NCBI GenBank assembly: GCA_049510055.1
Contig: JBEKZI010000017.1
Coordinates: forward strand, 1-32,226
Length of the DNA stretch: 32,226 nt
Source: Phycisphaerae bacterium
GTDB taxonomy: Bacteria > Planctomycetota > Phycisphaerae > SM23-33
Reading direction: 5' to 3'
Shown: positions 2,901-22,843 of the stretch, piece by piece
Layout of the letters: the number at the start of each line of letters is the position of its first letter
Position numbering within the stretch: position 1 is the first letter of the stretch
Notes under the pieces: model-generated
Databases searched by the model: none
Told to the model about the DNA's origin: nothing
What the model saw: only the letters and a program-made list of their open reading frames with translations
Position numbers and translations under genes: made by a program

Positions 2901-2935
2901 AAAACCCCGGCACCGAAGGGCGCCGGGGTTGGGTT
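2901..2935. terminator. GC-rich hairpin (CCCCGGCaCC-gaag-GGcGCCGGGG) flanked by A/T runs, a likely terminator of the rplM-rpsI operon
   Basis: The minus-strand RNA reads CCCCGGCGCCCUUCGGUGCCGGGG followed by UUUUUAC. It lies between the rpsI stop (2955) and the argC start (2797). Confidence 0.6.
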
Positions 2936-2954
2936 TGTCGTGGGATAAGGCAGC

Positions 2955-3479
2955 TTAGCGTTTGGAGTACTGGAACCTCTTTCGGGCGCCCTTTTGGCCG
3001 TACTTTTTTCTTTCCTTCATCCTGGCGTCTCGGGTGAGCAGGCCGCGGTCGCGGAGCGCGGCTTCCGCCTCCGGGGCGGCCTTAACGATGGCGCGGGCCA
3101 GGCCGAGCAGGATCGCCCCGGCTTGGCCGCTGCGTCCGCCGCCGGCGACCTTTGCCCAGATGTCCCAGGCACCGACCATGTTCACCGCCGTCAGGGGGGC
3201 CGAGACGGCGTTGCGGTCCTTGATCTCGGTGAAGAATTTCTCCACGGCTCGATCGTTGACGAGAATTTTGCCGCTGCCGGGCCGAATCCGGACGCGGGCG
3301 ACGGCCTTTTTCCGCCGGCCCGTGCCCCAGATGTATTGCACGCCCGCCGGCAGGGGCGGGGCCGTGCGACCAGCGGCCTGCGGCGCCGGTGGTGCGGCCG
3401 GTGCCACCGCAGCGACCGGTGCCACCGGAGCGGCCGGTGCGGCGGTCGGAGTCTCAGCGTTTGTCTGTTCGTCAGCCAT
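2955..3479 (-). CDS. rpsI: 30S ribosomal protein S9 with a ~45-aa Ala/Pro-rich N-terminal extension
   Basis: The C-terminal 125 aa match S9, including QYIWGTGRRKKAVARVRIRPG and the C-terminal RKRFQYSKR. The N-terminus is a low-complexity PAAPVAPVAAVAPAAPPAP segment. Confidence 0.9.
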   Translation of the reverse strand: MADEQTNAETPTAAPAAPVAPVAAVAPAAPPAPQAAGRTAPPLPAGVQYIWGTGRRKKAVARVRIRPGSGKILVNDRAVEKFFTEIKDRNAVSAPLTAVNMVGAWDIWAKVAGGGRSGQAGAILLGLARAIVKAAPEAEAALRDRGLLTRDARMKERKKYGQKGARKRFQYSKR

Positions 3480-3506
3480 GGTCGATTGTTCCTGCGTTTC
3501 TGAAGA

Positions 3507-3938
3507 CTACAATTCCAGCGCCGCCGGCTGCTGAGCCTGGTGCTGATGCTCGCCGCCTGCGTACACCTTCAGCCGGCTGAACATCACTGTCCCCAGCTTG
3601 CTCTTGGGCAACATGCGGCGGACGGCCTCGGAGACGACGCGCTCGGGATGCTTGGCGAGCATCTCCTTCAGCGGGACGGTTCTCTGCCCGCCGGGATAGC
3701 CGCTGTAGGTCTGGTATTCGCGCTTGGCGAGCTTGGTGGAGCCGGTCACCTTCACCTTGGCGGCGTTGATGACGACCACAAAGTCGCCCATGGCCACGTG
3801 GGGCGTGTACTCCACGCGGTGCTTGCCCATCAGAATCCGGGCGATCTTGACAGCCATGCGGCCCACCACCTTGTCGGTGGCGTCCACCAGGTACCATCGG
3901 GCGGCGATCTCGCCGGTCTTGGCCATGTACGTCTTCAT
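3507..3938 (-). CDS. rplM: 50S ribosomal protein L13
   Basis: The N-terminus MKTYMAKTGEIAARWYLVDATDKVVGRMA is an L13 N-terminus. The gene is directly upstream of rpsI in the conserved rplM-rpsI order. Confidence 0.9.
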   Translation of the reverse strand: MKTYMAKTGEIAARWYLVDATDKVVGRMAVKIARILMGKHRVEYTPHVAMGDFVVVINAAKVKVTGSTKLAKREYQTYSGYPGGQRTVPLKEMLAKHPERVVSEAVRRMLPKSKLGTVMFSRLKVYAGGEHQHQAQQPAALEL

Positions 3939-4133
3939 TGTTTCATCCCAAGGCTGTCTGGGCAGCCTAAGCTAAAGAGTCGCGTATTATGGCGTTTACC
4001 GCGGATAAGTCAACGGCATTTCGCCCGGAAACGCAGAAACCGCCGCGTCCTTGCGTGGCTCGCCGGGAGGGCTTAGGCTGGCAAGGGCCGGGATGGCTGC
4101 GAAGGCGCCGTCCGGGCGGAAGGAGGTCGCACG

Positions 4134-4583
4134 ATGGAATACCAGGTTGGGCGAATCGGCCGCGTGATCGTGGCCAGGGCGTTCGAGGGCGAGGACCTCT
4201 ACGGCCAGGTCCAGGCCATCGCCGCCAAGGAGAATCTCCGCAGCGCGGCCGTCCTGGCCGTCGGCGGCCTGCGGCGGGCCAAGGTCGTGGTCGGCCCCAA
4301 GGACCCCCACGGCCCGATTGAGCCGCAATTTCGCCAATTCGACGACGCGCGCGAGATCGTCGGCGTCGGGACGATCTTCCCCGACGAGACCGGGCCCGTG
4401 CTGCACTTCCACGCCGGCATCGGTCGCGGCGCCGAGGCCATCGTGGGCTGCCCGCGCGGCGGGGCGAGCGTCTTCTGCGTGCTTGAGCTGATCCTCATCG
4501 AGATCGAGGGCATCGACGCGCGGCGGCTGCTGGACGAGCAATTGGGCCTCAAGCTGCTGCGTGTGGGTCCGGCGGCCCGGTAG
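4134..4583 (+). CDS. PPC-domain (DUF296 / COG1661, PD1-like) protein
   Basis: A 149-aa ORF with a strong GGAGGT Shine-Dalgarno. Fold-family recognition (VGGLRRAKVVVGP ... HFHAGIG ... ELILIEI) is by pattern memory. It is divergent from rplM. Confidence 0.65.
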   Translation: MEYQVGRIGRVIVARAFEGEDLYGQVQAIAAKENLRSAAVLAVGGLRRAKVVVGPKDPHGPIEPQFRQFDDAREIVGVGTIFPDETGPVLHFHAGIGRGAEAIVGCPRGGASVFCVLELILIEIEGIDARRLLDEQLGLKLLRVGPAAR

Positions 4584-4586
4584 GAG

Positions 4587-5687
4587 CTAGCGCCGGGGTT
4601 TTTTGCCCTTGGCTAAGGCTTTGAAGTATTTGATCCGCGTGCGGAGGGGCAGGCGCTGCGTGCATCGCTTTTCGCAAGCTCCGCAGAGGGTGCAAACTAA
4701 GGTGGCGGCGGGCGTCAGGTCCCAGTGCCATAGCAGCCGCCGCTTGACCCGCTCGTGGTCGCCGCCCAGCAGGCGGAAGTTGTAGGCGTCCATCAGCTTG
4801 GGCACCTCCACGCCGACCGGGCAGGGCAGGCAATAGCTGCAACCGGTGCACAGGTCGTTGAACACCGTCGGCATTTTCTTGCGCAGGACGGCCCTGTGGC
4901 TGGCAGGATAAGGGCGGAAGTTTTCCGCCACCGCCACGGCCTGGTCGATTTGCTTAGTGGTCTTGAAGCCCACCAGGGCCGACGTGACCGCCGGCTGGGA
5001 GAGGTTGAACCGCAAGGCCGCGTCCACGACGGAATCGTCGTCCTTGGCCCGCAGGAAGTCGAACCGCTTGGCGTGCTGGGGAATCAGGCCGCCGGCCAGC
5101 GGGTTCATCGTGACCACGCCCAGGTGCATCTTGGCGGCGGCGTCCAGGGCCTTCTGGCGGTAGGGGAAGTTCAGCGCGCAGTAGCCCAGCGTAACGCCCT
5201 CAAAGACCCCTTCGGCCAGCAGCTTGCCGAGGTCCTTGCCCGGCAGGTGCGAGGAGACGGCCAGGTGGCGGATGAGTCCTTCGTCCTTGGCCTTCATCGC
5301 GGCGGCCACGGCGCCGCCTTTCTTGCGCTGCTTCCACTGGTCGGGATTCACGATGCACCAGATGTGGAAGAAGTCGATGTAGGACGTGTTCAGCCGCTTG
5401 AGGGATTTCTCCAGGCTTTTGCGCAGCTTGGCGCCGTCGGCCTCCATGCACTTGGTGGACAGGTACACGCGTTTGCGATTCATCCGCCGCACGGCCGCCC
5501 CGATGATGTCCTCGCTTTTGTCCTTGCAGTAGAACGGGGCGGTGTCGAAGTAGTTGATGCCCCGCCGGTAGGCGTGCAGCACCAGCGAGGCGTTGGCATC
5601 GATGTCGCGGGGATCGGGAAAGCGCATGCCGCCGAAGCCGATGACGGAAATCTTCTCGCCCGTCTTGCCGTATTCCCTAGTGAGCAT
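4587..5687 (-). CDS. Aldo/keto reductase with a C-terminal Cys-rich 4Fe-4S-like domain (COG1453 family)
   Basis: The N-terminal half is an AKR TIM barrel (GFGGMRFP, YFDTA). The C-terminus carries two Cys clusters (CTGCSYCLPCP ... CTLCGACEKRC). Confidence 0.8.
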   Translation of the reverse strand: MLTREYGKTGEKISVIGFGGMRFPDPRDIDANASLVLHAYRRGINYFDTAPFYCKDKSEDIIGAAVRRMNRKRVYLSTKCMEADGAKLRKSLEKSLKRLNTSYIDFFHIWCIVNPDQWKQRKKGGAVAAAMKAKDEGLIRHLAVSSHLPGKDLGKLLAEGVFEGVTLGYCALNFPYRQKALDAAAKMHLGVVTMNPLAGGLIPQHAKRFDFLRAKDDDSVVDAALRFNLSQPAVTSALVGFKTTKQIDQAVAVAENFRPYPASHRAVLRKKMPTVFNDLCTGCSYCLPCPVGVEVPKLMDAYNFRLLGGDHERVKRRLLWHWDLTPAATLVCTLCGACEKRCTQRLPLRTRIKYFKALAKGKKPRR

Positions 5688-8714: not shown

Positions 8715-9066
8715 GGGGGCGAACTGGCTTCGACCGGACGAGTTGCGGTGTCGGTGGCGTGCCCAGGTTCCAAGGAGGCCTGGTAAAACACCTTGGACTA
8801 ACTTCAGATGCCAATCCCGAATTGGCACTGGCTGCCTAATTAGGTAGCCCGTCCGGTGGGTCTTGCCCGCGAGGCCCGCCAGGACGCAAGCAGCGGGCTT
8901 ACCGGCTGGGAGTGGCCCGGTTACCCAGTCGGGACATTATGGGCGGGCTCGCCTTCGCCGGACCGTGTCGCCGCGGGCCGGCGAGGGGAGACCAAAACAG
9001 CGACTACGCACGTAGAGGCCGGCACTGAAACGTCACGGGACCCGGGTTCGATTCCCGGCGCCTCCA
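8715..9066 (+). ncRNA. ssrA: tmRNA (SsrA), one-piece, ~352 nt
   Basis: The 5' end GGGGGCGAACUGGCUUCGACC matches the tmRNA consensus (GGGGnnGA..UUCGAC). The 3' end GGACCCGGGUUCGAUUCCCGGCGCCUCCA has a T-arm plus an acceptor strand that pairs with the 5' GGGGGCG (6 Watson-Crick pairs and 1 G-U pair). An in-frame tag ORF GCC AAU CCC GAA UUG GCA CUG GCU GCC UAA lies at 8810..8839, about 95 nt from the 5' end; the E. coli resume codon is at about 90 nt. An E. coli-like GCACGUAGA element precedes the T-arm. Confidence 0.8.
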
Positions 9067-9147
9067 TCCTGCTTCGCTCCGGCCTGAGGGGCCGGAGCTT
9101 CGCAGGACTTTGTCCTGCGAAGTAAGCGAAGCGAACTAAAAGCAGGT

Positions 9148-9473: not shown

Positions 9474-11615
9474 ATGCGGGATTTCACCCGATCTTTGAAG
9501 TACCTCTGGCCTTACCGGCTGCGGATAGGTCTGGCCCTGCTCTGCACGCTGGGTATCAGCGTGCTGTGGGCCGGCGGACTGGCTGCGATCCTGCCGGCGG
9601 CCAAGGTGCTGATGTCTTCCGAGGGCCTGCACGGCTGGGTGTACAGGCTGGCGGCCTCGGACCGCCTGGGCGTGGACCTGGTCTCGTACTTGCCCCCCGA
9701 GCGCACCCAACTCCAGGGCCAGCAGCTCTCTTGGGTGGTGGCGGTGGGGCAGCCCCATCGTTCGCACCGCAACGCCGGCGCCCTGCTGCCGGGCCAGTGG
9801 GTGGTGGGTCTGGAGGATGGCGACGTCGCTCACCGGTTTCTGCGGGCGGATGCACTGCTGCGGCTGCTGGCGATGCAGCAGCCGGATCGGCGGATCACGC
9901 TTCGCGTATGCCGGTCGGACAGCGACCAGATTACGCTGTTGCCTGTGGTGACAAGCACGTTGACCCTGTCGACCCAAGCGATGCTTTGGCTGACCCGGCG
10001 CTTTCCCGAGCCGCGGACCTTCGCGGACCGCTTCCCGATCCTGTTGACGCTGCTGGTCTTCGGGATCGTCATCAGCATCCTGCGCGACGCCCTGCGGATT
10101 CTTCAGGAATTCCTGTCCAGCTCGGCGGTGTGGTACGCGGTGAATGACATCCGCAACGACAACTACAACGTGGCCCTGCGTCTGCCGGTGGGCTATTACG
10201 CCAAGCACGGGACCGCCGACGCGATCAGCCGTTTCACCTATGACGTGGGTATGCTGGCCCGGGGGCTCATCACGTTGCTGAGCAAGACGCTGGTGGAGCC
10301 CGCCAAGGCGTTGGCGACGCTGGCCCTGGCGCTCATCCTGTCCTGGAAGCTGACCCTGATCGCCCTGATCGCCGGTCCGCCGGCATTCCTGGCCATTCGC
10401 CGGCTGGGGCGGGCGATGCGACGCGTTTCGCGCCAGGCGATGCTGAGCATGTCCCAAATGCTGGAGGTGCTGGAGGAGACGCTCGGCGGCATCCGAGTGG
10501 TCAAGGCCTACACCATGGAGAATCGCGAGCGCCGGCGGTTCCTGCGGGTCAACCACCAGTTGCTCCGCCAGAACCTCAAGGTGTTCTTTGTGGAAGCGTT
10601 GACGGCCCCGATCGTGGAGGCGCTGGGGATCACCGCGGCCATGGCCGCCGTAGCCGTGGCGGGATACTGGGTGCTCCACAATCAGCACGACTTGGACGCC
10701 GAGAAGTTCCTGGCGTTGATGGCGTGCCTGGTGGCGATGTTCGACCCGATTCGCAAGCTCTCGTCCGTTTCGACCGTCTTTCACGCCTCGGACGCCGCCG
10801 CGGCGCGGATCAGGGAACTGCACGATGCGCCGCAGGAAGTCACGTCGCCCGGGGCGCCCAGTCTGCCGCGCCACCGGCGCAGCATCGAGTTCCGCCACGT
10901 CAGTTTCCGCTACGACGGGACGAGCGATGACGCCCTTCGCGACGTCAACCTGACTATCCGGGCCGGCGAGAACGTAGCCATCGTCGGGCCCAACGGTTCG
11001 GGCAAGACCACGCTGGTGTCGATGCTCCCGCGATTGTTGGACCCCACGACCGGCCAGGTGCTCATTGATGGGACGGACATCGCGCGGTGCTCTTTGCGGT
11101 CGTTGCGGCGGCAGATCGGGCTGGTGACGCAGGACGCCGTACTTTTCCACGCCACGATCGAGGAGAACATCTCCTACGGTCTGCACCGTTCGCAGCCCGA
11201 CAAGACCCGCCGCGCGGCCGAGCGGGCCTACGTGGACGAATTCATCCGGAAACTGCCCGAAGGATACGGCACCCTTGTGGGCCCCCATGGAGCGACGCTC
11301 TCGGGCGGGGAGAAGCAGCGGATCAGTATCGCTCGTGCCATCCTGCGCGACCCGGCTATCCTCATCTTTGACGAGGCGATGAGCCAGATCGACTCCGATT
11401 CGGAGCACCGGATTCAGCAAGCGATGCAGGAGTTCTCACGTGGCCGGACGACGCTGATCGTCGCGCACCGCTTTGCGACGGTGCTGGCCGCCGGCCGCAT
11501 TGTGGTGATGCAGGCGGGGCGGATTCAGGACAGCGGCACGCACGACGAGTTGATGAGCCGCTGTGAACTCTATCGACACCTCTACGCCACTCAGTTCATC
11601 GCCACGGGCGGCTAG
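9474..11615 (+). CDS. ABC exporter (fused transmembrane and ATPase domains, MsbA/McjD-like) with a ~150-aa extracytoplasmic insertion between TM1 and TM2
   Basis: It has Walker A GPNGSGKTT, ABC signature LSGGEKQR, Walker B ILIFDEAMS and an H-loop IVAHR. Six hydrophobic helices are present, plus a long hydrophilic loop (residues ~48-190) after TM1. It is convergent with the RiPP operon. The 738-aa minus-strand ORF over it is an antisense artefact. Confidence 0.9.
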   Translation: MRDFTRSLKYLWPYRLRIGLALLCTLGISVLWAGGLAAILPAAKVLMSSEGLHGWVYRLAASDRLGVDLVSYLPPERTQLQGQQLSWVVAVGQPHRSHRNAGALLPGQWVVGLEDGDVAHRFLRADALLRLLAMQQPDRRITLRVCRSDSDQITLLPVVTSTLTLSTQAMLWLTRRFPEPRTFADRFPILLTLLVFGIVISILRDALRILQEFLSSSAVWYAVNDIRNDNYNVALRLPVGYYAKHGTADAISRFTYDVGMLARGLITLLSKTLVEPAKALATLALALILSWKLTLIALIAGPPAFLAIRRLGRAMRRVSRQAMLSMSQMLEVLEETLGGIRVVKAYTMENRERRRFLRVNHQLLRQNLKVFFVEALTAPIVEALGITAAMAAVAVAGYWVLHNQHDLDAEKFLALMACLVAMFDPIRKLSSVSTVFHASDAAAARIRELHDAPQEVTSPGAPSLPRHRRSIEFRHVSFRYDGTSDDALRDVNLTIRAGENVAIVGPNGSGKTTLVSMLPRLLDPTTGQVLIDGTDIARCSLRSLRRQIGLVTQDAVLFHATIEENISYGLHRSQPDKTRRAAERAYVDEFIRKLPEGYGTLVGPHGATLSGGEKQRISIARAILRDPAILIFDEAMSQIDSDSEHRIQQAMQEFSRGRTTLIVAHRFATVLAAGRIVVMQAGRIQDSGTHDELMSRCELYRHLYATQFIATGG

Positions 11616-11715
11616 TGACCTTCGCCTTGCCCATGCCATCCGCCGGCGGCCAATGGCCCTGTGTTTCCGGACTGATGCCCCCGGTCTCTCGGAATGCCGA
11701 TGGGGAACCCCCCCC

Positions 11716-13179
11716 CTACCAGGGCACGCGCAGGGCCCGGAGGGGATGCCGCAGGACGAACCGGGCCAGCTTGCGGCGCATCGCCCGCCGGACGGCGAGA
11801 TCCCCTGACGGGGTATCGCGAAGGTAGGCCCACCGCATCTGCGGTTTGACGGTGTACTTCAGGAACCTCCGGTAGGCGCGGTTGAGCTCCTCATCCGACA
11901 TGGCCGTGAGGTTCACCGACGGGCCCGGCACTTCGAAGTAGGAAAGGCTTCCCCAGGTCAGAGTGCTCCGCTCTTGTGGACTGAGGTCCTGGTAGATCGG
12001 CGTGCCGGGCAGCGGGAAAAGCCGGCCGGCGGCGATGATCTCGGGTCTGGCCTGGCGCAGGAACTTGACGGTCTGGTTCAAATCCCATGCCGTTTCGCCG
12101 GGCAGACCTACCATGATGTCGGCGAAGATGCGCAGGCCCGCCTGGCGGGTCAGCAAGACGGCCCGGCGGTTGAGCTCGGCGGTGGCGTTCTTGCCCAGCC
12201 GGCGCAGCGCGTCGCTTGAACCGCTCTCAAAGCCGTACTCCACCTGGATGCACCCGGCCGATTTCATCTGATTCAGCAGCTCGCTGTCCGCTTGGTCCAC
12301 ACGCAGGCAGGCGTCCCATTGGAGCTGTTGGTGCAGGCCGGCGCGTCGGATCTGCTCGCAGAGCTCCAGCAGCCGCGAACGGTCGGCCCCCAGCGTGTCA
12401 TCCTCAAAGTGGATGGCCTCGACGCCGAACCGCCGGCGAGCAACCTGCATCTGCTCGATGACGTACGGAATGGAATGGAACCGCACGCCGACGCCGGAAA
12501 TCAAGTGCCCGGCGCAGAAGCGGCAGCGATTCGTGCAGCCGCGACTGGTGCGAATGTTGATCGCGGCGAGCTTGAGCCAGCGGATCAGGAATCGCCCTGG
12601 CGAGGTGTAGTAATCCATGCCGAATAGGTCGTAGGCGGGCGGTCCCAGGGTGTCCAGGTCCGTTACCGGCGGGCGGTCGGGCGTGCGGACGATGCCGCCG
12701 GCGGTGCGGAAGGCGATTCCCCGCACCGCTGGGCCGGGCCCGCCCTCGGCCAGCTCTCGCAGGGTGATTTCGCCCTCCCCGATGACGGCGACGTCGATCT
12801 GGGGACACTCCTGGAGCAGATGCTCGGGCAGGGCGGTGGGGTGCGGGCCGCCGGCCACTACCAGCGTCGCCGGGCCGCAGATCGTCTTGGCGTCCTGGGC
12901 CGCGAGTTGCCCTTCGGGCACACCCGGGGTTACCAGGGACAGTCCGACTATTTGCGGCTGGAACTCCTGCATCAATGTCTGCAGACTCGCCCGAGCGGCC
13001 GGCCAGTCAAAGCCGTTGCGCACCAACTGTTCCTCGGCGACGTACACCTTGACCTCATGGCCGCTGCGTCTCAGGACGGTCGCGATGCAGGCGATGCCAG
13101 TGGGCACCCATTGGGATCGAAAGATCCCTCGGGGCCAATCGGAGCGAGGAGGCGCGGGATAGACCAGCAGGATTTTCAT
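11716..13179 (-). CDS. B12-binding (class B) radical SAM enzyme
   Basis: An N-terminal cobalamin-binding Rossmann-like domain (MKILLVYPAPP ...) is followed by a radical SAM CxxxCxxC motif (CTNRCRFC). The start at 13179 forms an ATGA overlap with the upstream stop codon. The track ORF extends to 13281, which is unlikely to be the real start. Confidence 0.8.
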   Translation of the reverse strand: MKILLVYPAPPRSDWPRGIFRSQWVPTGIACIATVLRRSGHEVKVYVAEEQLVRNGFDWPAARASLQTLMQEFQPQIVGLSLVTPGVPEGQLAAQDAKTICGPATLVVAGGPHPTALPEHLLQECPQIDVAVIGEGEITLRELAEGGPGPAVRGIAFRTAGGIVRTPDRPPVTDLDTLGPPAYDLFGMDYYTSPGRFLIRWLKLAAINIRTSRGCTNRCRFCAGHLISGVGVRFHSIPYVIEQMQVARRRFGVEAIHFEDDTLGADRSRLLELCEQIRRAGLHQQLQWDACLRVDQADSELLNQMKSAGCIQVEYGFESGSSDALRRLGKNATAELNRRAVLLTRQAGLRIFADIMVGLPGETAWDLNQTVKFLRQARPEIIAAGRLFPLPGTPIYQDLSPQERSTLTWGSLSYFEVPGPSVNLTAMSDEELNRAYRRFLKYTVKPQMRWAYLRDTPSGDLAVRRAMRRKLARFVLRHPLRALRVPW

Positions 13180-14184: not shown

Positions 14185-15168
14185 TCACCTCAGCAGCGAC
14201 GTGACCAGCGCCCCAAGCTCTTGGAGGCGAGGGCCAAGGCTCACCTCGTACGTGTCGCTCGTGCGAACCAGCTCAGCCATGGCCGCGAACGCCCGCCCGT
14301 CGCTGCCCTCGCGGTGCTTCTCGTACGCACGCACGTTCTCGTTGACCAATCGGACCAGAGCGCGGGTTTTGTCCAGGGGATGCACCTGATGCTGCCAGGG
14401 ATTGTGGGGATTGAGGAAAAGGATCAGCCCCGCCGAGGCGGCCACGCGGGTGGTCGGCGCCGCGGCCGGCCGCACATCCACCAGCACCTCATCGTTTCCG
14501 ATGTGGCCCCTGTGAGGCAGTCCTGCCAGCCACGGCAGCATCTGAATCGTTTGGCGGTGGACCTTGCAGGGGAAGCGAAGGCCCCAGAGCTGCGCATCGT
14601 GGTGCGGCGTGGCCGGGCTGAAGAACGTGATGTCGTCGGCCAGCAGGCTGAAGCCTTCGCCGGCCAGGCCCAGGGCCGTGGTGGTCTTTCCCCTCCCGCT
14701 GAGGCCGGAGATGAGCACGGCCCGTCGCTGCGGCGGACGATCCAGGAACAGGCTGGCGGCGTGGATGACGTAGTGCCCCTGGTCGTTGAGGATGTCGCAG
14801 AGCCACGGCAGGACGCACGCCTCCAGCAGGCACCTTTCGGCCCCGGGCCGGACGACGAACTCCGCCCGCCCCGCCGACAAGTCCACGTCGGCCGTGGCTT
14901 GGTCGATCACCTCGGTTTGGCGTCTTCGCGGATTGCAGCGGAAGATGATTCGACTTCCGTTAGGCAGCGAACCCCGCCAGAATTCCGGCAGGTCCGTCAG
15001 GGCAGGCAAGTGCTGCGCGTAGCGAATGCGGAGGCAAAACGCCCCGTCGCCCGGCTGGGCGGCATAGGCGCCAATGGCGGCCTGCACGGGGGCGAGCAGC
15101 GCCGGGTCGTCCGCCTCGACGGCGATGCGTTCGCCATGAACGTCGAAATGGGCTTGGACGGAACACAT
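14185..15168 (-). CDS. HPr kinase/phosphorylase C-terminal-domain-like P-loop kinase (HprK-related kinase)
   Basis: P-loop LISGLSGRGKTTTALGLAGEGFSLLADD is typical of the HprK-like kinases found in RiPP and lasso clusters. There is no HPr-binding N-terminal domain. Only one in-frame ATG is available. Confidence 0.75.
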   Translation of the reverse strand: MCSVQAHFDVHGERIAVEADDPALLAPVQAAIGAYAAQPGDGAFCLRIRYAQHLPALTDLPEFWRGSLPNGSRIIFRCNPRRRQTEVIDQATADVDLSAGRAEFVVRPGAERCLLEACVLPWLCDILNDQGHYVIHAASLFLDRPPQRRAVLISGLSGRGKTTTALGLAGEGFSLLADDITFFSPATPHHDAQLWGLRFPCKVHRQTIQMLPWLAGLPHRGHIGNDEVLVDVRPAAAPTTRVAASAGLILFLNPHNPWQHQVHPLDKTRALVRLVNENVRAYEKHREGSDGRAFAAMAELVRTSDTYEVSLGPRLQELGALVTSLLR

Positions 15169-15299: not shown

Positions 15300-15410
15300 C
15301 CCCCCCGTTACATCCGAAAGCTGCTCACGCTTCTGAAACGTTGGCTGAGAAGAGGGCTTCTGGGGCGTTTCTACGCTTTCCCTAACCCGATACCGTGGCG
15401 AAGCCGCACT
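15300..15410 (-). pseudogene. Decayed ninth copy of a type-1 precursor-peptide unit (start codon and Shine-Dalgarno lost)
   Basis: It aligns base-for-base with the functional units (for example CATCCGAAAGCTGCTCACGCTTCTGAAACGTTGGCTGAGAAGAGGGCTTCTGGGGCGTTTCTACGC against TATCCGAGAGCTTTTCACGCTTCTGGAGCGTAGGCGGAGAATAGGGTTTCTTCGTTTGCATGC). TCTACGC replaces TGCATGC at the start, and the SD CTCCTTC is mutated to TTTCCCT. Confidence 0.5.
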
Positions 15411-15416
15411 GTCTAT

Positions 15417-15518
15417 TTAAAAGGGCCCCCCTGAGCCGCGGACCGGGCTTTGAGTCGTATCCGAGAGCTTTTCGCGCTTCTGGAGCGTTGGCGGAGAATA
15501 GGGTTTCTTCGTTTTCAT
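15417..15518 (-). CDS. Precursor peptide A, type 1 (33 aa): MKTKKPYSPPTLQKREKLSDTTQ | SPVRGSGGPF
   Basis: AAGGAGAT Shine-Dalgarno 8 nt before the ATG. The leader carries Y-17, P-14, L-12 and T-2. It is not in the ORF track (under 60 aa). It is one of 8 tandem paralogues. Confidence 0.7.
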   Translation of the reverse strand: MKTKKPYSPPTLQKREKLSDTTQSPVRGSGGPF

Positions 15519-15562: not shown

Positions 15563-15667
15563 TTAACGCCTAGCGCCCGAGGTGATGGAGGGACCGCCTT
15601 GAGTCATATCTGAGAGCTTGTCCCGCTTTTGGAGCGTCGGCGGAGAATAGGGCTTCTTCGTTTTCAT
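15563..15667 (-). CDS. Precursor peptide B, type 1 (34 aa): MKTKKPYSPPTLQKRDKLSDMTQ | GGPSITSGARR
   Basis: Hand-translated from the minus strand. AAAGAGCT Shine-Dalgarno-like sequence. Same leader as peptide A; the core differs. Confidence 0.7.
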   Translation of the reverse strand: MKTKKPYSPPTLQKRDKLSDMTQGGPSITSGARR

Positions 15668-15712: not shown

Positions 15713-15826
15713 TTAACCCGTACCATCCCTAGCGCCTGAGGTGATGGGGGGACTACCTTGAGTCATATCTGAGAGCTTGTCCCGCTTCTGGAGCGTAGGC
15801 GGAGAATAGGGCTTCTTCGTTTTCAT
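15713..15826 (-). CDS. Precursor peptide C, type 1 (37 aa): MKTKKPYSPPTLQKRDKLSDMTQ | GSPPITSGARDGTG
   Basis: Hand-translated from the minus strand. Leader identical to peptide B. Core carries the ITSG motif. Confidence 0.7.
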   Translation of the reverse strand: MKTKKPYSPPTLQKRDKLSDMTQGSPPITSGARDGTG

Positions 15827-15871: not shown

Positions 15872-15985
15872 TTAAGCATTACCATCCCTAGCGCCTGAGG
15901 TGATGGGGGGGTCGCCTTGAGTCATATCTGAAAGCTTGTCCCGCTTCTGGAGCGTAGGTGGAGAATAGGGTTTCTTCGTTTTCAT
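15872..15985 (-). CDS. Precursor peptide D, type 1 (37 aa): MKTKKPYSPPTLQKRDKLSDMTQ | GDPPITSGARDGNA
   Basis: Hand-translated from the minus strand. AAAGGAGAT Shine-Dalgarno. Leader identical to peptides B and C. Confidence 0.7.
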   Translation of the reverse strand: MKTKKPYSPPTLQKRDKLSDMTQGDPPITSGARDGNA

Positions 15986-16030: not shown

Positions 16031-16141
16031 TTAATCATTAGCATCAACGCCCGAGGTGATGGAGGCCCCGCCTTGAGTCGTATCCGAGAGCTTTTCACGC
16101 TTCTGGAGCGTAGGCGGAGAATAGGGTTTCTTCGTTTGCAT
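16031..16141 (-). CDS. Precursor peptide E, type 1 (36 aa): MQTKKPYSPPTLQKREKLSDTTQ | GGASITSGVDAND
   Basis: It is the internal Met of track ORF 16031..16240. AAGGAGAT Shine-Dalgarno before this ATG. Confidence 0.75.
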   Translation of the reverse strand: MQTKKPYSPPTLQKREKLSDTTQGGASITSGVDAND

Positions 16142-16181: not shown

Positions 16182-16292
16182 TCACGGGGGTGTAGGTGTA
16201 ACCCCGCTGACGCCGTCGGGCACAGCGGTGATGTCGGCAAGCCGCTCCAGCTTCTTCAACACGGGTTTGACATAGGGCTTCTTGGCGTTCAT
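16182..16292 (-). CDS. Precursor peptide F, type 2 (36 aa): MNAKKPYVKPVLKKLERLADITA | VPDGVSGVTPTPP
   Basis: It is the internal Met of track ORF 16182..16364. AAGGAAT Shine-Dalgarno. The type-2 leader carries the same Y-17, P-14, L-12 and T-2 positions. Confidence 0.75.
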   Translation of the reverse strand: MNAKKPYVKPVLKKLERLADITAVPDGVSGVTPTPP

Positions 16293-16305: not shown

Positions 16306-16416
16306 TCACTCGGGTGTAACCCCGCTGACGACGCCGGGCGTACCCTGAGCGGTGATGTCGGCAAGCCGCTCCAGCTTCTTCAACACGGGTTTGGCATAGG
16401 ACTTCTTGGTGTCCAT
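16306..16416 (-). CDS. Precursor peptide G, type 2 (36 aa): MDTKKSYAKPVLKKLERLADITA | QGTPGVVSGVTPE
   Basis: It is the internal Met of track ORF 16306..16488. AAAGGAAT Shine-Dalgarno. Confidence 0.75.
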   Translation of the reverse strand: MDTKKSYAKPVLKKLERLADITAQGTPGVVSGVTPE

Positions 16417-16429: not shown

Positions 16430-16540
16430 TCAACCGGGTGTAGCCCCACTGACGACGCCGGGCGTGCCCTGAGCGGTGATGTCGGCAAGCCGCTCCAGCT
16501 TCTTCAACACGGGTTTGGCATAAGGCTTCTTGGCGTTCAT
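16430..16540 (-). CDS. Precursor peptide H, type 2 (36 aa): MNAKKPYAKPVLKKLERLADITA | QGTPGVVSGATPG
   Basis: It is the internal Met of track ORF 16430..16663. AAAGGAAT Shine-Dalgarno. It is the first gene of the array after B2. Confidence 0.75.
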   Translation of the reverse strand: MNAKKPYAKPVLKKLERLADITAQGTPGVVSGATPG

Positions 16541-16646: not shown

Positions 16647-17117
16647 TTATGGGGCTTGTGCAAGGTCCTCTTTGACGGAATTTTCTTGCGCCGCGGCCCC
16701 GTGGACCAGCACCACCGCCGCCGGGCCGTCCGGGGGCGACGTTAAGGCTATATCATTGAGCGTCACCCAGCCGTGGGCTTGGGTTCGCGGGGCCTCCGGG
16801 TTTTGCGGATACACGCCGATTCGCAAAACGGCCGGGTAGCCTGCCAGGCGCAGGAAGTGAAACAGGGTTAGGGACTGTCGCAGGCAGGGGCGACGGCGCA
16901 TGTTGCGAGGGTTTTTCAGACGTTGCGCTACCCGCTCCACGATATCCTGCCAGGCAATGCCCCGGTAGGGGACCACGGAAGTCGGGGGCGTCAGCACGCG
17001 TAACACTCGCTTGAGCGACAAGACCTTGTCCAGCAGGGGAATGAACGTCGCCACCAGCCAGATGTGCGCCCGTAACAACGGCAATCGCAGCGACATGGGG
17101 CCGCTAGTGTTGCTCAA
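16647..17117 (-). CDS. Lasso-B2-like leader peptidase (transglutaminase-like Cys protease, PF13471-type)
   Basis: The protein has McjB-type catalytic residues: Cys in the RRRPCLRQSLTLFHFL context and His/Asp in QAHGWVTLNDIALTSPPDG. It is ~156 aa, the size of a stand-alone B2 domain. It overlaps the B1 stop by 14 nt; an alternative start lies at 17096. Confidence 0.75.
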   Translation of the reverse strand: MSNTSGPMSLRLPLLRAHIWLVATFIPLLDKVLSLKRVLRVLTPPTSVVPYRGIAWQDIVERVAQRLKNPRNMRRRPCLRQSLTLFHFLRLAGYPAVLRIGVYPQNPEAPRTQAHGWVTLNDIALTSPPDGPAAVVLVHGAAAQENSVKEDLAQAP

Positions 17118-17397
17118 CCAGCAATTTCTCCTGAAGAAGCTTGCCCGCCAAGGCGGTCATGTCCCGGGTAAGCTCCTCTCGCGAGACTTCGTACTGTTCC
17201 CAAAGGGTTTCAATGGCCTCCCCGAGCGTCCGCCGGCCGTCCAGTGCCTGCAGGAAGGCGGCAGTGGTCTCATTGCACGTGTACAGGTACCCGGAGTTGA
17301 GCGAGAACACGACCGTGTCCGATCCGGGGCCCAACGACTGGTAGGTCACGTCGTCGGCCAGCTTCAATCGCAGGTTCAGTAGCGGTATGGCAGTCAT
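17104..17397 (-). CDS. PqqD-family RiPP recognition element (lasso B1-like)
   Basis: Residues 26-122 of the track ORF (MTAIPLLNLRLKLADDVTYQSLGPGSDTVVFSLNSGYLYTCNETTAAFLQALDGRRTLGEAIETLW...) show the PqqD fold pattern. The start at 17397 is chosen to exclude the non-conserved 25-aa extension. Confidence 0.75.
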   Translation of the reverse strand: MTAIPLLNLRLKLADDVTYQSLGPGSDTVVFSLNSGYLYTCNETTAAFLQALDGRRTLGEAIETLWEQYEVSREELTRDMTALAGKLLQEKLLVEQH

Positions 17398-17678: not shown

Positions 17679-20165
17679 ATGAGACCACGGTTGATAGTGA
17701 TGGCAGTGGCCGCGACCTTGGCTGCAGTGGCATGCCTGGCGCAGGCCGAAAAAGCCTCCGTCCTTCTGGACAAGGGCATCTACACCGAAGAAACGCTTGG
17801 GAACCCCTCCGCGGCCATCGGCATCTACAGCCAGGTGGTCGCCAGCGGCGAGGCCGACCGCCAGTATGCCGCCCAGGCCCAGTATCGCATCGCGATGTGC
17901 CACCTGAAGCTCAAGCACGACAACGAGGCCCGCGAGGCGCTGAAGACATTCCTGAGCAAGTACAGCGATCAGGAAGAGCTGGCGTCCAAGGCCCGGACCG
18001 CGCTGGAGGACCTGCTGGAGTTCGACCCGGCGGCGCTCATGCCTCCCACCATCGTGGCCTACGTCGAGGTGGGCAGCCCCGGCAAACAGCTCGAGACGGT
18101 CCTGAAGATGCTGAAGGGCACGCCTTTGGCCAATCCGCTGGAGATGATGAATCCAACATCCGCGCCGTCGGATGCCTCCGCGCCGTCGGCGACCTCCGCG
18201 CCGGCGACTTCCTACGGCCGCCCCGCCAGTCCCGCCCAGGTCTTCTCGGCGTTGCTGAATCCCAGCATGCTGAAAGAGTTCAAGAAGCTTCGCAGCATGG
18301 CCGTGGGCGTCTCCGAGATCAAAGGCCGCGGCCAGAGCCCCTTCGTGGCCGTCTTGAGGCCCGGCGACAGCGACGCGCTCCGCGGGATCCTCACGGCCGG
18401 CGTGCTTGCCTCCGGCCAGCCCACCGCCCCGATCGAAGGCATGCAGACGGTGCAACTCAGCCCGGAGATGGCCTGCGCGTTCGACGACAGCGTGTTCCTC
18501 TTTGCCTCCCCGGTGTCTCAACTTGCCTGGAGCGTCCATCAGTATAAGTCCGGCGCGCCCGAACCCAGCCTGCTGACCGCCAACGAGTCGTTTTCGCGGC
18601 TGGCCCCTGCCGCCGATCGCAAAAATGACGCGCTGACGGTCTGGGCGAACCCTTCTCGGCTGCTCCAAAACAAAGCGTACATCCCGCCGGAAGCCCTGGA
18701 GAAAATGATGATCGCAAACGCCTTCGCCGACTTCGAAAACATGGAGGGCGCCGTCGTCCGGTTGCGCCTCAAGGAGACCAGCCTCAGCCTGGAGGCCACC
18801 GTCGCCTACCGCGAGGGGCGCAAAGCGTTTGGGTATGACCTGATCCGCACGTGTCCACTGGACCAGGCCGGTTTTGCCGCCGTTCCTCCGCAGGCGGTGG
18901 GCATCGTGGCCCTGGCCCTGTTGGAGCACACCGCCTCAACAGAACCTCCCGTCGCCGACGTTCGGCAGGAGACCGTCCGCCGTATCACCGGGCTGGACCT
19001 GGGGAGAGAGCTGTTCAGTAATATCGAGCAACTCTCGCTGTTCTTGATGCCGTCCAGCGAGGCGGCGACGGCCCATCCGTTGAGCCGTCTGTCTGTGGTG
19101 GCCCCGTCGCTGGGCCTGGCCATTACGTCGCGCAACCCCGCGCAGACCCTGGCCGTGCTGGACAGGATGTTGACGGTCCAAGGCCTGATGTCGGCAGGTT
19201 CCACCAGCGCCCCGGCGGCGGACGAGCAAGGCATGCGGACGTACGTAATCGGCGCCAGCAACCAGAAGCCGATATCCCTGTGCGTGGCGCAGAAAGGCAA
19301 GACCACGGTGCTGGCGTTCCTTCCGGAAGTGGTCCAGACGTCTCTGACGGCCCTGGGCACGGGCAAGAACGTCACGACCGACGGGCCGATGGCACAGGCC
19401 CTCGGCCAGGTCAGCGACAAGAACAAGGTGGTGCTGGTCAACGCCGGCGGACTGTTCCGCTTGTATGACGCCAGCGTCGCGCCGCCCGCGGCAAAACGCG
19501 ACGCGGCGTCGCAGCCGGCGACGGACAGCCAGGCCGTGGCCGATCAGATCGCCTCGGCCCTGGACGACACGGTAATCCGGCTGGAGACCTCCGAACTGCC
19601 GAACACCATGACGGTCCGCGCCGAGCTATTGGGCATTCCGCCGCTGGCGAAGCTGTTTCCTCTGGTCATGCAGTATCAGCAGCAGCGCATGGCCTTCCAG
19701 AAGGCCAGGAAATCGCAAGCACAACCTTCCCAAGAGCGCAACAAGCTCATGAAGCAGGTCGGAACAGATTTCCTCAAGGCCCTCCAGGCAAATGACGAGG
19801 CGGCGATTGGGAAATTGATCGTCCCGCACTCCTCCGTGGAGGCCAAGATCAAGGACCTACTTGCAGTCCCGGGTCTGGCGGCGTTTCGGTTCCAGGATAG
19901 CGGCAGGGCGCTAAATCTCGGTTGGGTCCTGGTGTACGGGCCCGACAAGACGGATTCCTCGGCGCCCGCGATACTGATCCATCTGCTCAAGCAGGCCAAG
20001 TCCCCGCCGCCGTGGCTCGTCTCGGACGTGGAAATCCTTCCGATCCCGGATGCCATACACCAATTGAAGCAGTACGATTCCAGGGCCACCGGCGGCCCGA
20101 TGCCGGCGCCTGCGCCGGCGCCCGCGCCTGCGGGTGATGATGCGGCGCCCGCCGAGAACAACTGA
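17679..20165 (+). CDS. Secreted 828-aa hypothetical protein (Sec signal peptide, TPR-like N-terminal region, Ala/Pro/Ser-rich linker, C-terminal PAPAPAPA)
   Basis: Signal peptide MRPRLIVMAVAATLAAVACLAQA. The amino-acid composition is coherent. AAAGGGA Shine-Dalgarno. The overlapping 511-aa minus-strand ORF is an artefact. Confidence 0.7.
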   Translation: MRPRLIVMAVAATLAAVACLAQAEKASVLLDKGIYTEETLGNPSAAIGIYSQVVASGEADRQYAAQAQYRIAMCHLKLKHDNEAREALKTFLSKYSDQEELASKARTALEDLLEFDPAALMPPTIVAYVEVGSPGKQLETVLKMLKGTPLANPLEMMNPTSAPSDASAPSATSAPATSYGRPASPAQVFSALLNPSMLKEFKKLRSMAVGVSEIKGRGQSPFVAVLRPGDSDALRGILTAGVLASGQPTAPIEGMQTVQLSPEMACAFDDSVFLFASPVSQLAWSVHQYKSGAPEPSLLTANESFSRLAPAADRKNDALTVWANPSRLLQNKAYIPPEALEKMMIANAFADFENMEGAVVRLRLKETSLSLEATVAYREGRKAFGYDLIRTCPLDQAGFAAVPPQAVGIVALALLEHTASTEPPVADVRQETVRRITGLDLGRELFSNIEQLSLFLMPSSEAATAHPLSRLSVVAPSLGLAITSRNPAQTLAVLDRMLTVQGLMSAGSTSAPAADEQGMRTYVIGASNQKPISLCVAQKGKTTVLAFLPEVVQTSLTALGTGKNVTTDGPMAQALGQVSDKNKVVLVNAGGLFRLYDASVAPPAAKRDAASQPATDSQAVADQIASALDDTVIRLETSELPNTMTVRAELLGIPPLAKLFPLVMQYQQQRMAFQKARKSQAQPSQERNKLMKQVGTDFLKALQANDEAAIGKLIVPHSSVEAKIKDLLAVPGLAAFRFQDSGRALNLGWVLVYGPDKTDSSAPAILIHLLKQAKSPPPWLVSDVEILPIPDAIHQLKQYDSRATGGPMPAPAPAPAPAGDDAAPAENN

Positions 20166-20175
20166 TGATGAACCG

Positions 20176-22155
20176 ATGAACGCGGTTTCCATTGGCAGGG
20201 GTGAAGGCACAGGCCGCAGCCACGTGTTGCGGCCTGTGCTGGTCGTTTTGCTGGCGACGGTCCTGGTGCCGTCGGCCTGCACGTTGTGGTTCATGTATGC
20301 CGCCGTGCAGGAAGTGTCGCTGGCTTCCCGCCAGCGCCTGGCGGATGCCTACGACGGCGCGGTCCGAGGGGCCGCGGCCAGGCTTCAGGACTATTGCTCA
20401 GCCCGGATCGCCTCGCTGTCGGCCGGCGGCGATCCGTCGCCGACGAAGGCCTTCGACCGGCTGGTCTTGGCCCGCGCCGCCGATGCCGTGATCGTCCGCG
20501 ACGGCGCCGGCCGTCTGCTCTACCCCTCCCCCCAGGTTCCCTCCGGGCAGGCCAGAGCGATGTCGCAAGCGTGGCAGTCGGCGGAAGACTTGGAGCACGC
20601 GCAGGCGGACGGCCTGGCTGCCGCAGCCGCCTATGCCCGGATCGCCGACACCGCCCCCAATGCCGACCTGCGGGCTCAGGCGATGCTGGCCCAGGCGCGA
20701 TGCCTGGCCAAGGCGGGGCAGAAGGATCAGGCTGTCGCCATCCTGCGGGCCCTGGCCGAGAATCCCGACTTGCAAGCCGCCAGGGGCGCCCAAGGGCGGC
20801 TGGTGACGCCCAATGCCGTCCTGTTCGCCCTGCAACTGATCAACCGGCCGGAGGATGAGCAGTTCCGCAAGCTGGCGGCGGGCCTGGTGAAACGGCTCAA
20901 CGATTACGAGGAACCGGCGATGCCGCCCAGCCAGCGGCGGTTCCTCATGGCCGCGCTGTGGGAGATGGACAACTCCCTTCCGCCTTTCGCAACGCTTGCG
21001 GCCGAGAACCTGGCGGCTGAGTATCTCAGTCGCCCGCAGCCGGCGCCACAGCCGTCGCAACTAACGCCGACGTCCCTGCCCGGCGTTTGGCAGGCGGCCG
21101 GGCCCGGCGGCACCGTGACGGGTCTGTTCCGGCAGGACCTTCTGCTGGCGAACATGCACTTGGCCATCCAGGCGGACGCCCCCCGGGGAGTGAGCCTGTT
21201 CATAAGGCCGCCGACCGGCGAACCGACGACGCGGCAGCGGGCCTTCGTGACTTTGCCGGCCGGGGCCGCCTTGCCCGGCTGGACGGTGGAGGTCCTGCTG
21301 ACCGGCGACGATCCCTTCGCCGTGGCGGCCCGGCAGCGCAAGGCCGCCATTCTGTGGACGGCCGCCGTCGGCATCATGATGATCCTGGCGCTGGCGGCGG
21401 TGTTGAGCTACTACCTCAGCCGCCAGGTGCGGCTGACGCGGCTGAAAAACGATCTGATCGCCACCGTGTCGCACGAGCTGAAGACCCCCCTGGCCTCCAT
21501 GCGCCTGCTGATCGACACGCTTCTGGAACGGCGCTATGGCGCCCAGGAGCAGGCCGAGGAATATTTAGCGATGATCGCCAAGGAAAATGAGCGCCTCAGC
21601 CGGCTCATCGATAACTTTTTGAATTTCTCGCGGATGGAGCGCCGCAAGACGGCGTTCGTGTTCGCGGCGCTGCCGGCCGATGAGCTGGTCGCCGCGGTCA
21701 TGCGGGCGGCGCCGGATCGGGTGACCCAGCCGCCGTGCCGTTTTGAATTGGACGTGGCGAAAGACTGCCCCGCCGTCCGCGGCGACCGCGACGCGCTGGT
21801 GACCGTCGTGCTGAACCTGCTGGACAATGCCTACAAATACTCCCACGACCCCCGGCGCATTGCGCTTCGCGTCTTCGGACAGGAAGGCCGCCTGCACCTG
21901 GAGGTCCGCGACAATGGCATCGGCCTGTCGCGCCGTTCAGTCCGTCGGGTGTTCCGACGCTTCTACCAGGTGGACCGCAGCCTTTCGCGCTCGGTGGGTG
22001 GTTGCGGTCTGGGGCTGAGCATTGTTAAATTTATCGTCGATGCCCACGGCGGCACCGTGGACGTCTCCAGCCGGCTCGGCCAAGGGAGCACGTTCACCGT
22101 CACGCTGCCGGGCCTGGAAGACGGCGCGGGACACGCAGGCCATGATGAAAGCTGA
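20176..22155 (+). CDS. Sensor histidine kinase (TM helix, large periplasmic domain, second TM helix, HisKA, HATPase)
   Basis: H-box SHELKTPLASMRLLIDTLLE. N box LLDNAYKYS. G boxes DNGIGL and GLGLSIVKFIVDAHGG. The start is taken at ATG 20176; the track ORF begins at GTG 20134. Confidence 0.85.
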   Translation: MNAVSIGRGEGTGRSHVLRPVLVVLLATVLVPSACTLWFMYAAVQEVSLASRQRLADAYDGAVRGAAARLQDYCSARIASLSAGGDPSPTKAFDRLVLARAADAVIVRDGAGRLLYPSPQVPSGQARAMSQAWQSAEDLEHAQADGLAAAAAYARIADTAPNADLRAQAMLAQARCLAKAGQKDQAVAILRALAENPDLQAARGAQGRLVTPNAVLFALQLINRPEDEQFRKLAAGLVKRLNDYEEPAMPPSQRRFLMAALWEMDNSLPPFATLAAENLAAEYLSRPQPAPQPSQLTPTSLPGVWQAAGPGGTVTGLFRQDLLLANMHLAIQADAPRGVSLFIRPPTGEPTTRQRAFVTLPAGAALPGWTVEVLLTGDDPFAVAARQRKAAILWTAAVGIMMILALAAVLSYYLSRQVRLTRLKNDLIATVSHELKTPLASMRLLIDTLLERRYGAQEQAEEYLAMIAKENERLSRLIDNFLNFSRMERRKTAFVFAALPADELVAAVMRAAPDRVTQPPCRFELDVAKDCPAVRGDRDALVTVVLNLLDNAYKYSHDPRRIALRVFGQEGRLHLEVRDNGIGLSRRSVRRVFRRFYQVDRSLSRSVGGCGLGLSIVKFIVDAHGGTVDVSSRLGQGSTFTVTLPGLEDGAGHAGHDES

Positions 22156-22843
22156 TCCGACTACCGACGAAACAATCCTCATCGTCGAGGACGAGCCCGC
22201 CATGCTGCGGGGCCTGAAGGACAATTTTCAGTTCGAGGGCTACCGCGTCCTGACGGCCGCCGACGGCGAGAAAGGGCTGGAGCTCGCCTGCGACGCCAAA
22301 CCGGACCTGATCCTCCTGGACATCATGCTGCCCAAGGTGAACGGCTATGAGATATGCCGGCTCCTGCGAAGCGAGGGGCTGGACATGCCGATCATCATGC
22401 TGACGGCCAAGGGGCAGGAGAGCGACATCATCCTGGGGCTGAACCTCGGCGCCGACGATTACGTCACCAAGCCTTTCAGCATCAAGGAGCTGCTGGCCCG
22501 CGTGCGGACGATGCTCCGTCGCCGCCGCCAGAAACAGCAACCGGTGATGCGAGCCGGCGACCTGGAACTGGACCTCGCCAGCCACCGGTTGCGGCGGGGG
22601 GGCAAGGAAGTGCCGCTCACGGCCAAGGAATTCGCCTTGCTTGAGCTGTTCTTCCGCCGGGCGGGCAAGGCCCTGACGCGGGATGAGATCCTGCGGACGG
22701 TGTGGGGCTACAACGTGTTCGTCACCTCCCGCAGCGTGGACCGATTCATCAACACGTTGCGGGCCAAGATCGAGGACGACCCCGCCAAACCCATCTGGAT
22801 CAAGACCGTCCGCCAGATAGGCTATCGCTTCGAACTTCCGTGA
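22142..22843 (+). CDS. OmpR-family response regulator (receiver plus winged-helix domain)
   Basis: Receiver domain ILIVEDEP ... LILLDIMLP ... MLTAKG. The C-terminal end IGYRFELP is typical of OmpR/PhoB. The start overlaps the kinase stop by 14 nt. Confidence 0.9.
   Translation: MMKADPTTDETILIVEDEPAMLRGLKDNFQFEGYRVLTAADGEKGLELACDAKPDLILLDIMLPKVNGYEICRLLRSEGLDMPIIMLTAKGQESDIILGLNLGADDYVTKPFSIKELLARVRTMLRRRRQKQQPVMRAGDLELDLASHRLRRGGKEVPLTAKEFALLELFFRRAGKALTRDEILRTVWGYNVFVTSRSVDRFINTLRAKIEDDPAKPIWIKTVRQIGYRFELP

Follow-up and report, generated by a model that had tools for sequence, protein, structure and literature searches.

The window analysed here is a 32,226-nucleotide (nt) stretch of DNA from a Phycisphaerae bacterium (contig JBEKZI010000017.1, positions 1 to 32,226), which carries on its minus strand a pair of genes, B1 and B2, related to those for the leader-binding protein and the leader peptidase of lasso peptide biosynthesis. 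We propose that this pair is the leader-processing head of a cassette for RiPPs (ribosomally synthesised peptides with post-translational modifications) that lacks the lasso cyclase (C), is built from parts of kinase-type lasso clusters and probably yields short, modified, non-lasso peptides. The proposal is based on a gene order conserved across two bacterial phyla, on precursors that join a lasso-type leader to cores without the features of lasso cores, and on searches of the window and its related loci that returned no cyclase.

A cassette headed by B1 and B2

We compared the window with 76 related loci from genome and metagenome collections, 61 of them from one metagenome scan, giving 77 sequences in total. 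Wherever the contig is long enough, the genes follow a single order: B1, B2, one to eleven precursor genes, a putative kinase gene (K), a nucleotidyltransferase gene (N) and a gene for a B12-binding radical S-adenosylmethionine (SAM) enzyme. The complete cassette is present in 29 of the 77 sequences (about 20 distinct loci after removal of duplicates), and the same order is seen on shorter contigs. Its carriers are metagenome-assembled genomes (MAGs) of Phycisphaerae/Planctomycetota and of Verrucomicrobiota, together with metagenomes from peat, soil and sediment. All six parts are intact in the window and in about 20 distinct loci, with protein identities of 35–88% and preserved catalytic motifs. 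B2, described as a stand-alone protease in an earlier note drawn from the DNA letters, is thus not solitary; together with B1 it heads a six-part collinear cassette. No other conserved protease was seen in the cassette in the 77 sequences. The enzymes encoded in the window are:

17104..17397, minus strand: B1, PqqD-like leader-binding protein (RiPP recognition element, RRE), 97 residues
16647..17117, minus strand: B2, transglutaminase-like cysteine peptidase, 156 residues (149 if the start is ATG 17096)
14185..15168, minus strand: K, P-loop protein with HPr-kinase/PEP carboxykinase (PEPCK) fold, putative peptide kinase, 327 residues
13176..14105, minus strand: N, NTP_transf_5 nucleotidyltransferase, 309 residues
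11716..13281, minus strand: B12-binding radical SAM enzyme, likely start ATG 13179, forming an ATGA overlap with the stop codon of N

B1 matches the Pfam family PqqD (PF05402) with 48 bits (cut-off 23.4), and the lasso PqqD models of NCBIfam match it weakly, below their cut-off (29 versus 70). GGTGA lies 7 nt ahead of its ATG, and copies of B1 that are 49–88% identical stand directly upstream of B2 in most related loci. B2 matches Transglut_core3 (PF13471; E 1.1e-10, 41.9 bits, cut-off 26) and passes the NCBIfam model lasso_biosyn_B2 (NF033537; 46 bits, cut-off 33); a public protein identical to it carries the name 'lasso peptide biosynthesis B2 protein [Phycisphaerae bacterium]'. Relatives of B2 numbered 320 in a cluster search at 90% identity and 998 among 50% representatives, and a tblastn search of a plasmid collection gave no match. 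If B2 starts at TTG 17117, a codon with an AGGAG site 10 nt ahead of it, the two genes overlap by 14 nt, as the earlier note had read them; with ATG 17096 as the start, a gap of 7 nt separates them. Under either start the pair is tightly coupled, as it is in relatives, where B1 and B2 overlap or lie at most about 100 nt apart, mostly at most 35 nt.

A complete Cys/His/Asp triad had also been ascribed to B2, and two of its three members, the catalytic Cys and His of lasso B2 peptidases (MEROPS C96), stand. Cys78 (RRRPCLRQS) and His115 (QAHGW) are invariant in 118 of 118 close and 100 of 100 distant homologues, and Trp117, Arg76 and Arg80 are likewise invariant across the 118; at the level of sequence, the Cys/His pair is firmly present. 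The acidic member is not conserved: the residue that had been named, D122 (TLND), is Asp in 25 of the 118 close homologues (21%) and Gly in 84. Asp or Glu occupies position D130 in 66 of the 118, and the best-conserved polar position after the His in distant relatives is His+12 (Glu, Asn or Asp in 80%), which corresponds to Ser127 in the window protein and to Asp or Glu in 18 of 118 family members, the loop alignment being uncertain for all these counts. The catalytic pair of McjB, which we take to be H182 and D194, has the same His+12 spacing as the conserved position in distant relatives. Cys78 and His115 fall opposite the CLQRAL and GHAW motifs of BsfB2 in an alignment that is not significant by itself; BLASTP and hidden Markov model comparisons of B2 with BsfB2 gave no significant match, and a search for a solved lasso B2 structure for comparison found none.

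Some relatives of B2 lie in other settings. Solo homologues, 48–50% identical and without B1, kinase, nucleotidyltransferase or radical SAM genes, are found in loci L011 (10001-10423), L049 (10001-10393), L012, L013 and L054; the neighbourhood in L011 and L049 reads aldehyde dehydrogenase, B2, Amidase_3 and Met-tRNA synthetase, and L012 and L013 keep only the Amidase_3/tRNA-synthetase side. A lone B1–B2 pair is located in L063 (9713-10381) between ribF/tetratricopeptide repeat (TPR) genes and a sigma-70-like gene with secA. Variant gene orders also occur: L069 (86-3110) has B2, kinase and radical SAM genes with no nucleotidyltransferase gene between the latter two, and in L065 (5185-5936) and L074 (1154-2835) the kinase gene follows B2 directly, the precursors of L074 lying upstream of B1.

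Precursors and the search for a cyclase

Eight short precursor genes lie downstream of B2 in two tandem arrays with periods of 124 and 159 nt, followed by a degenerate remnant:

16430..16540, minus strand: type 2 precursor, leader MNAKKPYAKPVLKKLERLADITA, core QGTPGVVSGATPG; ATG with AAGGAA 6 nt upstream; 124-nt tandem array
16306..16416, minus strand: type 2 precursor, core QGTPGVVSGVTPE
16182..16292, minus strand: type 2 precursor, core VPDGVSGVTPTPP
16031..16141, minus strand: type 1 precursor, leader MQTKKPYSPPTLQKREKLSDTTQ, core GGASITSGVDAND; ATG with AAGGAG upstream; 159-nt tandem array
15872..15985, minus strand: type 1 precursor, core GDPPITSGARDGNA
15713..15826, minus strand: type 1 precursor, core GSPPITSGARDGTG
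15563..15667, minus strand: type 1 precursor, core GGPSITSGARR
15417..15518, minus strand: type 1 precursor, core SPVRGSGGPF
15300..15360, minus strand: degenerate remnant of a ninth precursor (KPSSQPTFQKREQLSDVTG...), without start codon and with Tyr-17 changed to Ser in translation

A Shine-Dalgarno-like site resembling AAGGA(G/A) precedes the ATG of all eight precursors, and all eight leaders carry Tyr at −17 (the Tyr of a YxxPxL motif), Pro at −14, Leu at −12 and Thr at −2, matching the lasso leader motif and its spacing as defined previously (PMC10368454). The Thr at −2 that the earlier note had reported for both precursor types is therefore borne out in every window precursor. The cut sites predicted there (type 1, after ..TTQ or ..MTQ; type 2, after ..ITA) fall exactly 17 residues past the Tyr of YxxPxL, and we retain them as predictions because the Tyr-17/Pro-14/Leu-12/Thr-2 spacing matches that of lasso leaders. 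Among 110 distinct precursors from the window and the related loci, on which all core statistics given here are based, Thr-2 is found in 92 and Glu-1 in 84.

The cores differ from those of lasso peptides in length and in composition. They comprise 7–17 residues, most often 11, and 37 of the 110 have 10 residues or fewer; known lasso peptides have a minimum of about 13–14 residues, and cores of up to 10 are too short to form a ring with a threaded tail. Asp or Glu, one of which serves as ring-closing acceptor at positions 7–9 of lasso cores, occurs at these positions in 20 of the 110 (18%) and in none of the eight window cores; at position 7 the figure is 2%. The residue that is conserved instead is a Ser or Thr at positions 6–8 (100 of 110, 91%; at position 7 in 63), usually placed after Pro at 3–4 and Val or Ile at 5–6 (as in GSPPITSG, GGAPVVTT and GAPPPVTD). 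The segment preceding this Ser/Thr is fixed in length, while the tail beyond it varies from one to about 10 residues.

That B2 has no cyclase partner, as the earlier note had claimed, agrees with all our searches. No Asn_synthase match was obtained among the Pfam-scanned open reading frames (ORFs) of the window, that is, those judged likely genes, which cover most of its 32 kb; the largest unscanned gap, 2830-4587, holds no ORF of more than 190 residues. A screen of all 77 sequences for ORFs of more than 150 residues with an SGGxDS PP-loop motif, run without a positive control, was likewise negative, and Asn_synthase is absent from the precomputed Pfam annotations of L001, L002, L003, L014 and L015. 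In none of the approximately 20 distinct complete loci, which come from two phyla, was a cyclase found within about 10 kb. Just as no enzyme was found, the features of its substrate, namely the acceptor Asp/Glu and the core length, are absent too.

Two further observations concern the precursors. On L016, a metagenome contig that is 99–100% identical to the 14.4-22 kb region of the window, there are nine precursors rather than eight: GGATITSGTKK replaces GGASITSGVDAND, and an additional copy of GGPPITSGARDGNA is present. These differences indicate that the tandem array changes quickly. In the verrucomicrobial loci L006 (~10680-11100), L008 (~10859-11270) and L009 (~10879-11290), as well as in L022, L028, L030, L043 and L056, one precursor core of the array continues into a fused C-terminal domain some 110 residues long. 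This domain is Peptidase_S74 and begins exactly at SDRNAKKNF (46 bits, cut-off 22). Peptidase_S74 is the self-cleaving 'chaperone of endosialidase' domain of phage tail-spike proteins; self-cleavage before the Ser of SDRNAKKNF would free a core of 11–13 residues, a length like that of the free-standing cores.

Putative modifying enzymes and surrounding genes

The AlphaFold model of K (pLDDT 91) has the HPrK/PEPCK fold. Its residues H136, G158, G160, K161, T162, D178 and D179 do not vary across 36 homologues, and G155 hardly varies. These residues reproduce the H-G-G-G-K-S(T)-D-D motif of the lasso precursor kinase BsfK, in which H148, G163, G166, G168, K169, S170, D186 and D187 were shown by mutagenesis to be important (PMC10368454), and a profile comparison of K with BsfK using hhalign returned a probability of 94%. 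Judged from its sequence, K is a homologue of BsfK. Relatives of K also have a weak precomputed match to PF27840 (ScmC). In precursors that still bear their leader, BsfK phosphorylates a single fixed residue inside the core, Ser3, and accepts Thr in its place; in the Bsf lasso system B1 strongly accelerates this kinase (PMC10368454). The conserved Ser/Thr at core positions 6–8 offers a candidate phosphorylation site for K. In L001/L004, the closest MAG relative, the kinase gene is in three reading-frame pieces (11081-12060), which may reflect assembly frameshifts or a pseudogene, and the third precursor there reads on into the split kinase gene.

N scores 115.5 bits against Pfam PF14907 (cut-off 31.2), its translation shows the G...DxD signature (KG...TDVDLL), and in complete loci it sits between K and the radical SAM gene. 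PsmN, which provides the precedent for the N family, adds a hexose to the phosphate of pseudomycoidin (PMC8498205). The radical SAM enzyme combines a B12-binding domain (PF02310, 65.1 bits) with a Radical_SAM domain (PF04055, 65.2 bits) and the cluster motif CTNRCRFC. It thus has the features of class B, an N-terminal B12-binding domain and a CxxxCxxC core, and is 54–84% identical in all complete loci.

Beyond the radical SAM gene, a convergent gene encodes a transporter of the ATP-binding cassette (ABC) type:

9474..11615, plus strand: ABC exporter, fused permease and ATPase (ABC_membrane and ABC_tran)

This exporter, which only the nearer relatives share, is 80% identical in L001 and 61% identical in L034; it is not found in the verrucomicrobial loci and is absent from most loci. 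We considered it as a leader protease and rejected this assignment, since its first 199 residues contain no peptidase domain and the gene is missing from most loci. We likewise dismissed the idea that the cluster contains a cobalamin riboswitch or another RNA element, as an Rfam search yielded only a transfer-messenger RNA (tmRNA; 8715-9069, plus strand, RF00023, 153 bits), which lies some 400 nt away from the ABC exporter at the end of the cassette. tmRNA genes are common insertion sites of islands. The G+C content of the precursor/B1/B2 region is 0.59–0.61, compared with about 0.66, and no integrase was seen in the window.

Divergent from B1, positions 17679-22843 on the plus strand encode an 828-residue TPR protein, whose hydrophobic N-terminus resembles a secretion signal, a histidine kinase and an OmpR-type response regulator; genes for a histidine kinase and a response regulator lie near the cassette in L001 as well. 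The flanking genes are of housekeeping type (argJ, an argC-like gene, aldo/keto reductases, an IF-2B-family gene, the tmRNA, the two-component system, typA and others).

Proposed pathway, alternatives and known systems

Taking these data together, we infer the following sequence of chemical steps. B1 would bind the YxxPxL...T(-2) leader and present the precursor to the other enzymes. K would phosphorylate the conserved Ser/Thr about seven residues into the core, and N may then add a glycosyl or nucleotidyl group to the phosphate or to the same hydroxyl. The B12 radical SAM enzyme would modify an unactivated carbon, the likeliest reaction being methylation of the conserved Val/Ile/Pro stretch. 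B2, using Cys78 and His115, is predicted to cut after Thr(-2)-X(-1), at the type 1 and type 2 sites given above, and the resulting peptides of 7–17 residues, which would not be lassos, would be exported. In this scheme the earlier proposal that B1/B2 serves only as a leader-removal device is kept in part: given the lack of a cyclase, the non-lasso cores and Thr-2, leader recognition and removal are the most plausible role of the pair, whereas the word 'only' is probably too narrow. By analogy with the acceleration of BsfK by B1, B1 is probably a shared substrate-presenting subunit whose role extends beyond leader removal.

Several observations weigh against this scheme. Some B2 homologues stand alone or with B1 only, and there is at least one other context for the peptidase. 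B2 shows no conservation of the canonical third catalytic residue, and the assumption that it acts as a peptidase relies on the Cys/His pair and on the family to which it belongs. K does not reach the curated cut-offs of Hpr_kinase_C and TIGR04352; moreover, a C-terminal Ser, the site used by paeninodin-type and other characterised lasso kinases with the exception of BsfK, is present in 11 of the 110 cores (10%). The radical SAM enzyme falls far below every NCBIfam cut-off, and its best matches are HpnJ and BchE, which are not simple methyltransferases, and ApyD. Finally, the absence of a cyclase covers the window and the related loci, and a gene elsewhere in the genome is formally conceivable.

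An ordinary lasso pathway with such a cyclase acting in trans nevertheless seems to us very unlikely. It would be in keeping with a fully lasso-like B1, B2 and leader code, with the fact that 32 kb is all that is visible of this genome, and with the 20 cores that do have Asp or Glu at positions 7–9 (for example, the VTD group in L002). However, one would have to accept that the cyclase is remote in each of about 20 distinct complete loci in two phyla, that 82% of the cores lack the acceptor and conserve Ser/Thr, and that a third of them, with 7–10 residues, fall below the length needed for ring and threaded tail. More radically, K and N or the radical SAM enzyme might replace the cyclase functionally, joining the Ser/Thr near position 7 to the N-terminal amine freed by B2 in a 6–8-membered non-amide macrocycle, a 'pseudo-lasso'. 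Activation of the Ser/Thr by K, alone or together with N, through phosphorylation and then nucleotidylation or through elimination to a dehydro residue, could lead to a phosphoramidate or amine link, or the radical SAM enzyme could form a cross-link. The hydroxyl present at core positions 6–8 in 91% of cores, next to the lasso acceptor range of 7–9, the fixed length before it and the variable tail after it would all suit such a ring, as would the presence of two ATP-using enzymes, K and N, where the ATP-using cyclase is missing, and a cyclase, BchE, among the best radical SAM matches. We still regard this as unlikely: it is pure inference, with a chemistry that has no precedent, the reactions known from counterparts of K and N are simple phosphorylation and glycosylation, and a kinase gauging its distance from the leader held by B1, in the manner of BsfK at Ser3, would account for the fixed position just as well.

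The remaining alternatives concern the activity of B2 and of the locus as a whole. B2 might have become a scaffold or acquired another activity, with the leader cut by another protease or by the exporter. The Ser at His+12, the lack of a family-wide Asp after the His and the solo homologues in housekeeping neighbourhoods are compatible with this. We hold it to be improbable, since the invariance of Cys78, His115, Trp117, Arg76 and Arg80 across 118 homologues argues for a retained active site, 84% of leaders retain Thr-2, a known determinant of B2 cleavage, the cassette has no second conserved protease, and the exporter neither contains a peptidase domain nor occurs in most loci. A decaying, non-functional remnant of a lasso cluster that has lost its cyclase could account for the degenerate precursor in the window and for the frameshifted K gene in L001/L004. 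This is hardly credible for six parts that are intact in the window and in about 20 distinct loci of two phyla, with catalytic motifs kept at identities of 35–88%; in addition, conserved leaders, hypervariable cores and ribosome-binding sites are the pattern of active, diversifying RiPP loci. We therefore favour a functional, cyclase-less cassette in which B1 and B2 process the leaders of short modified peptides.

The earlier note had left a choice between a pre-lasso and a post-lasso state. We lean, tentatively, towards the latter, in which the cassette would have descended from a kinase-type lasso cluster by loss of C and of the acceptor residue and by gain of the radical SAM enzyme. Two observations favour a post-lasso origin: outside this cassette, K and N are known as enzymes accessory to lasso clusters, and the distant B2 relatives that an exhaustive profile search found among representatives include fusions of B2 to NTP_transf_5 (P0304, 437 residues; P0312, 549 residues), a fusion also reported for kinase-type lasso clusters.

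In the searchable literature, outside which most subscription journals lie, we found no description of a cyclase-less cassette of B1/B2, kinase, nucleotidyltransferase and B12 radical SAM enzyme. That RREs are re-used is known in outline; a B2 peptidase redeployed in company with K, N and a B12 radical SAM enzyme seems not to have been described. On this evidence, the lasso leader code, together with the B1/B2 pair that reads and cuts it, would seem to be a portable module re-used outside lasso peptides. Widespread as it is among uncultured Verrucomicrobiota and Planctomycetota, it probably represents a new class of small peptides with phospho and radical SAM modifications, in phyla from which hardly any natural products have been characterised. 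As a natural pair that would have to work without a cyclase, B1/B2 could be a useful leader-removal tool in RiPP engineering, and the position of the Ser/Thr, adjacent to the ring-closing Asp/Glu positions of lasso peptides, makes possible a direct test of how a RiPP class is gained or lost. In genome mining, such loci would be mislabelled by any rule for which B2 is sufficient to call a lasso peptide, and the NCBI name of B2 is already of this kind.

Among known systems, HPr kinase/phosphorylase and PEP carboxykinase, with which K shares its fold, act on HPr and oxaloacetate, whereas K would act on a ribosomal peptide; its match to these families lies below the Pfam and TIGRFAM cut-offs. PoyB/PoyC of the polytheonamides and ApyD are likewise class B radical SAM enzymes encoded beside short, leader-bearing precursors. 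Their systems have other leader types and other peptidases, and the window enzyme scores 131 bits for ApyD against a cut-off of 750. Canonical lasso systems (microcin J25 McjABCD and the split-B systems of actinobacteria) share with the window a transglutaminase-like Cys/His peptidase and a PqqD-like RRE that reads the leader, as well as the cut after Thr(-2)-X(-1), which for the window is a prediction. In these systems C forms the class-defining macrolactam between residue 1 and an Asp/Glu at positions 7–9, a step for which the cassette has neither the enzyme nor the acceptor residue.

The closest counterparts are the kinase-type lasso clusters, that is, those of paeninodin (Pade) and pseudomycoidin (Psm), ThcoK/SyanK and the Bradymonas bsf cluster. 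In common with these, the cassette has split B1 and B2, a YxxPxL leader at −17 to −12 whose residue at −2 is small and beta-branched, a precursor kinase that resembles HPr kinase and shares their H/G/G/G/K/S(T)/D/D motif, an NTP_transf_5 protein and, often, an ABC exporter. Unlike them, it has no Asn-synthetase-like cyclase and no conserved Asp/Glu acceptor, its cores comprise 7–17 residues, and its conserved hydroxyl residue is located around position 7 rather than at position 3 or the C-terminal end. Every complete locus includes a B12 radical SAM enzyme, and the precursors are tandemly multiplied, with one to eleven per locus.

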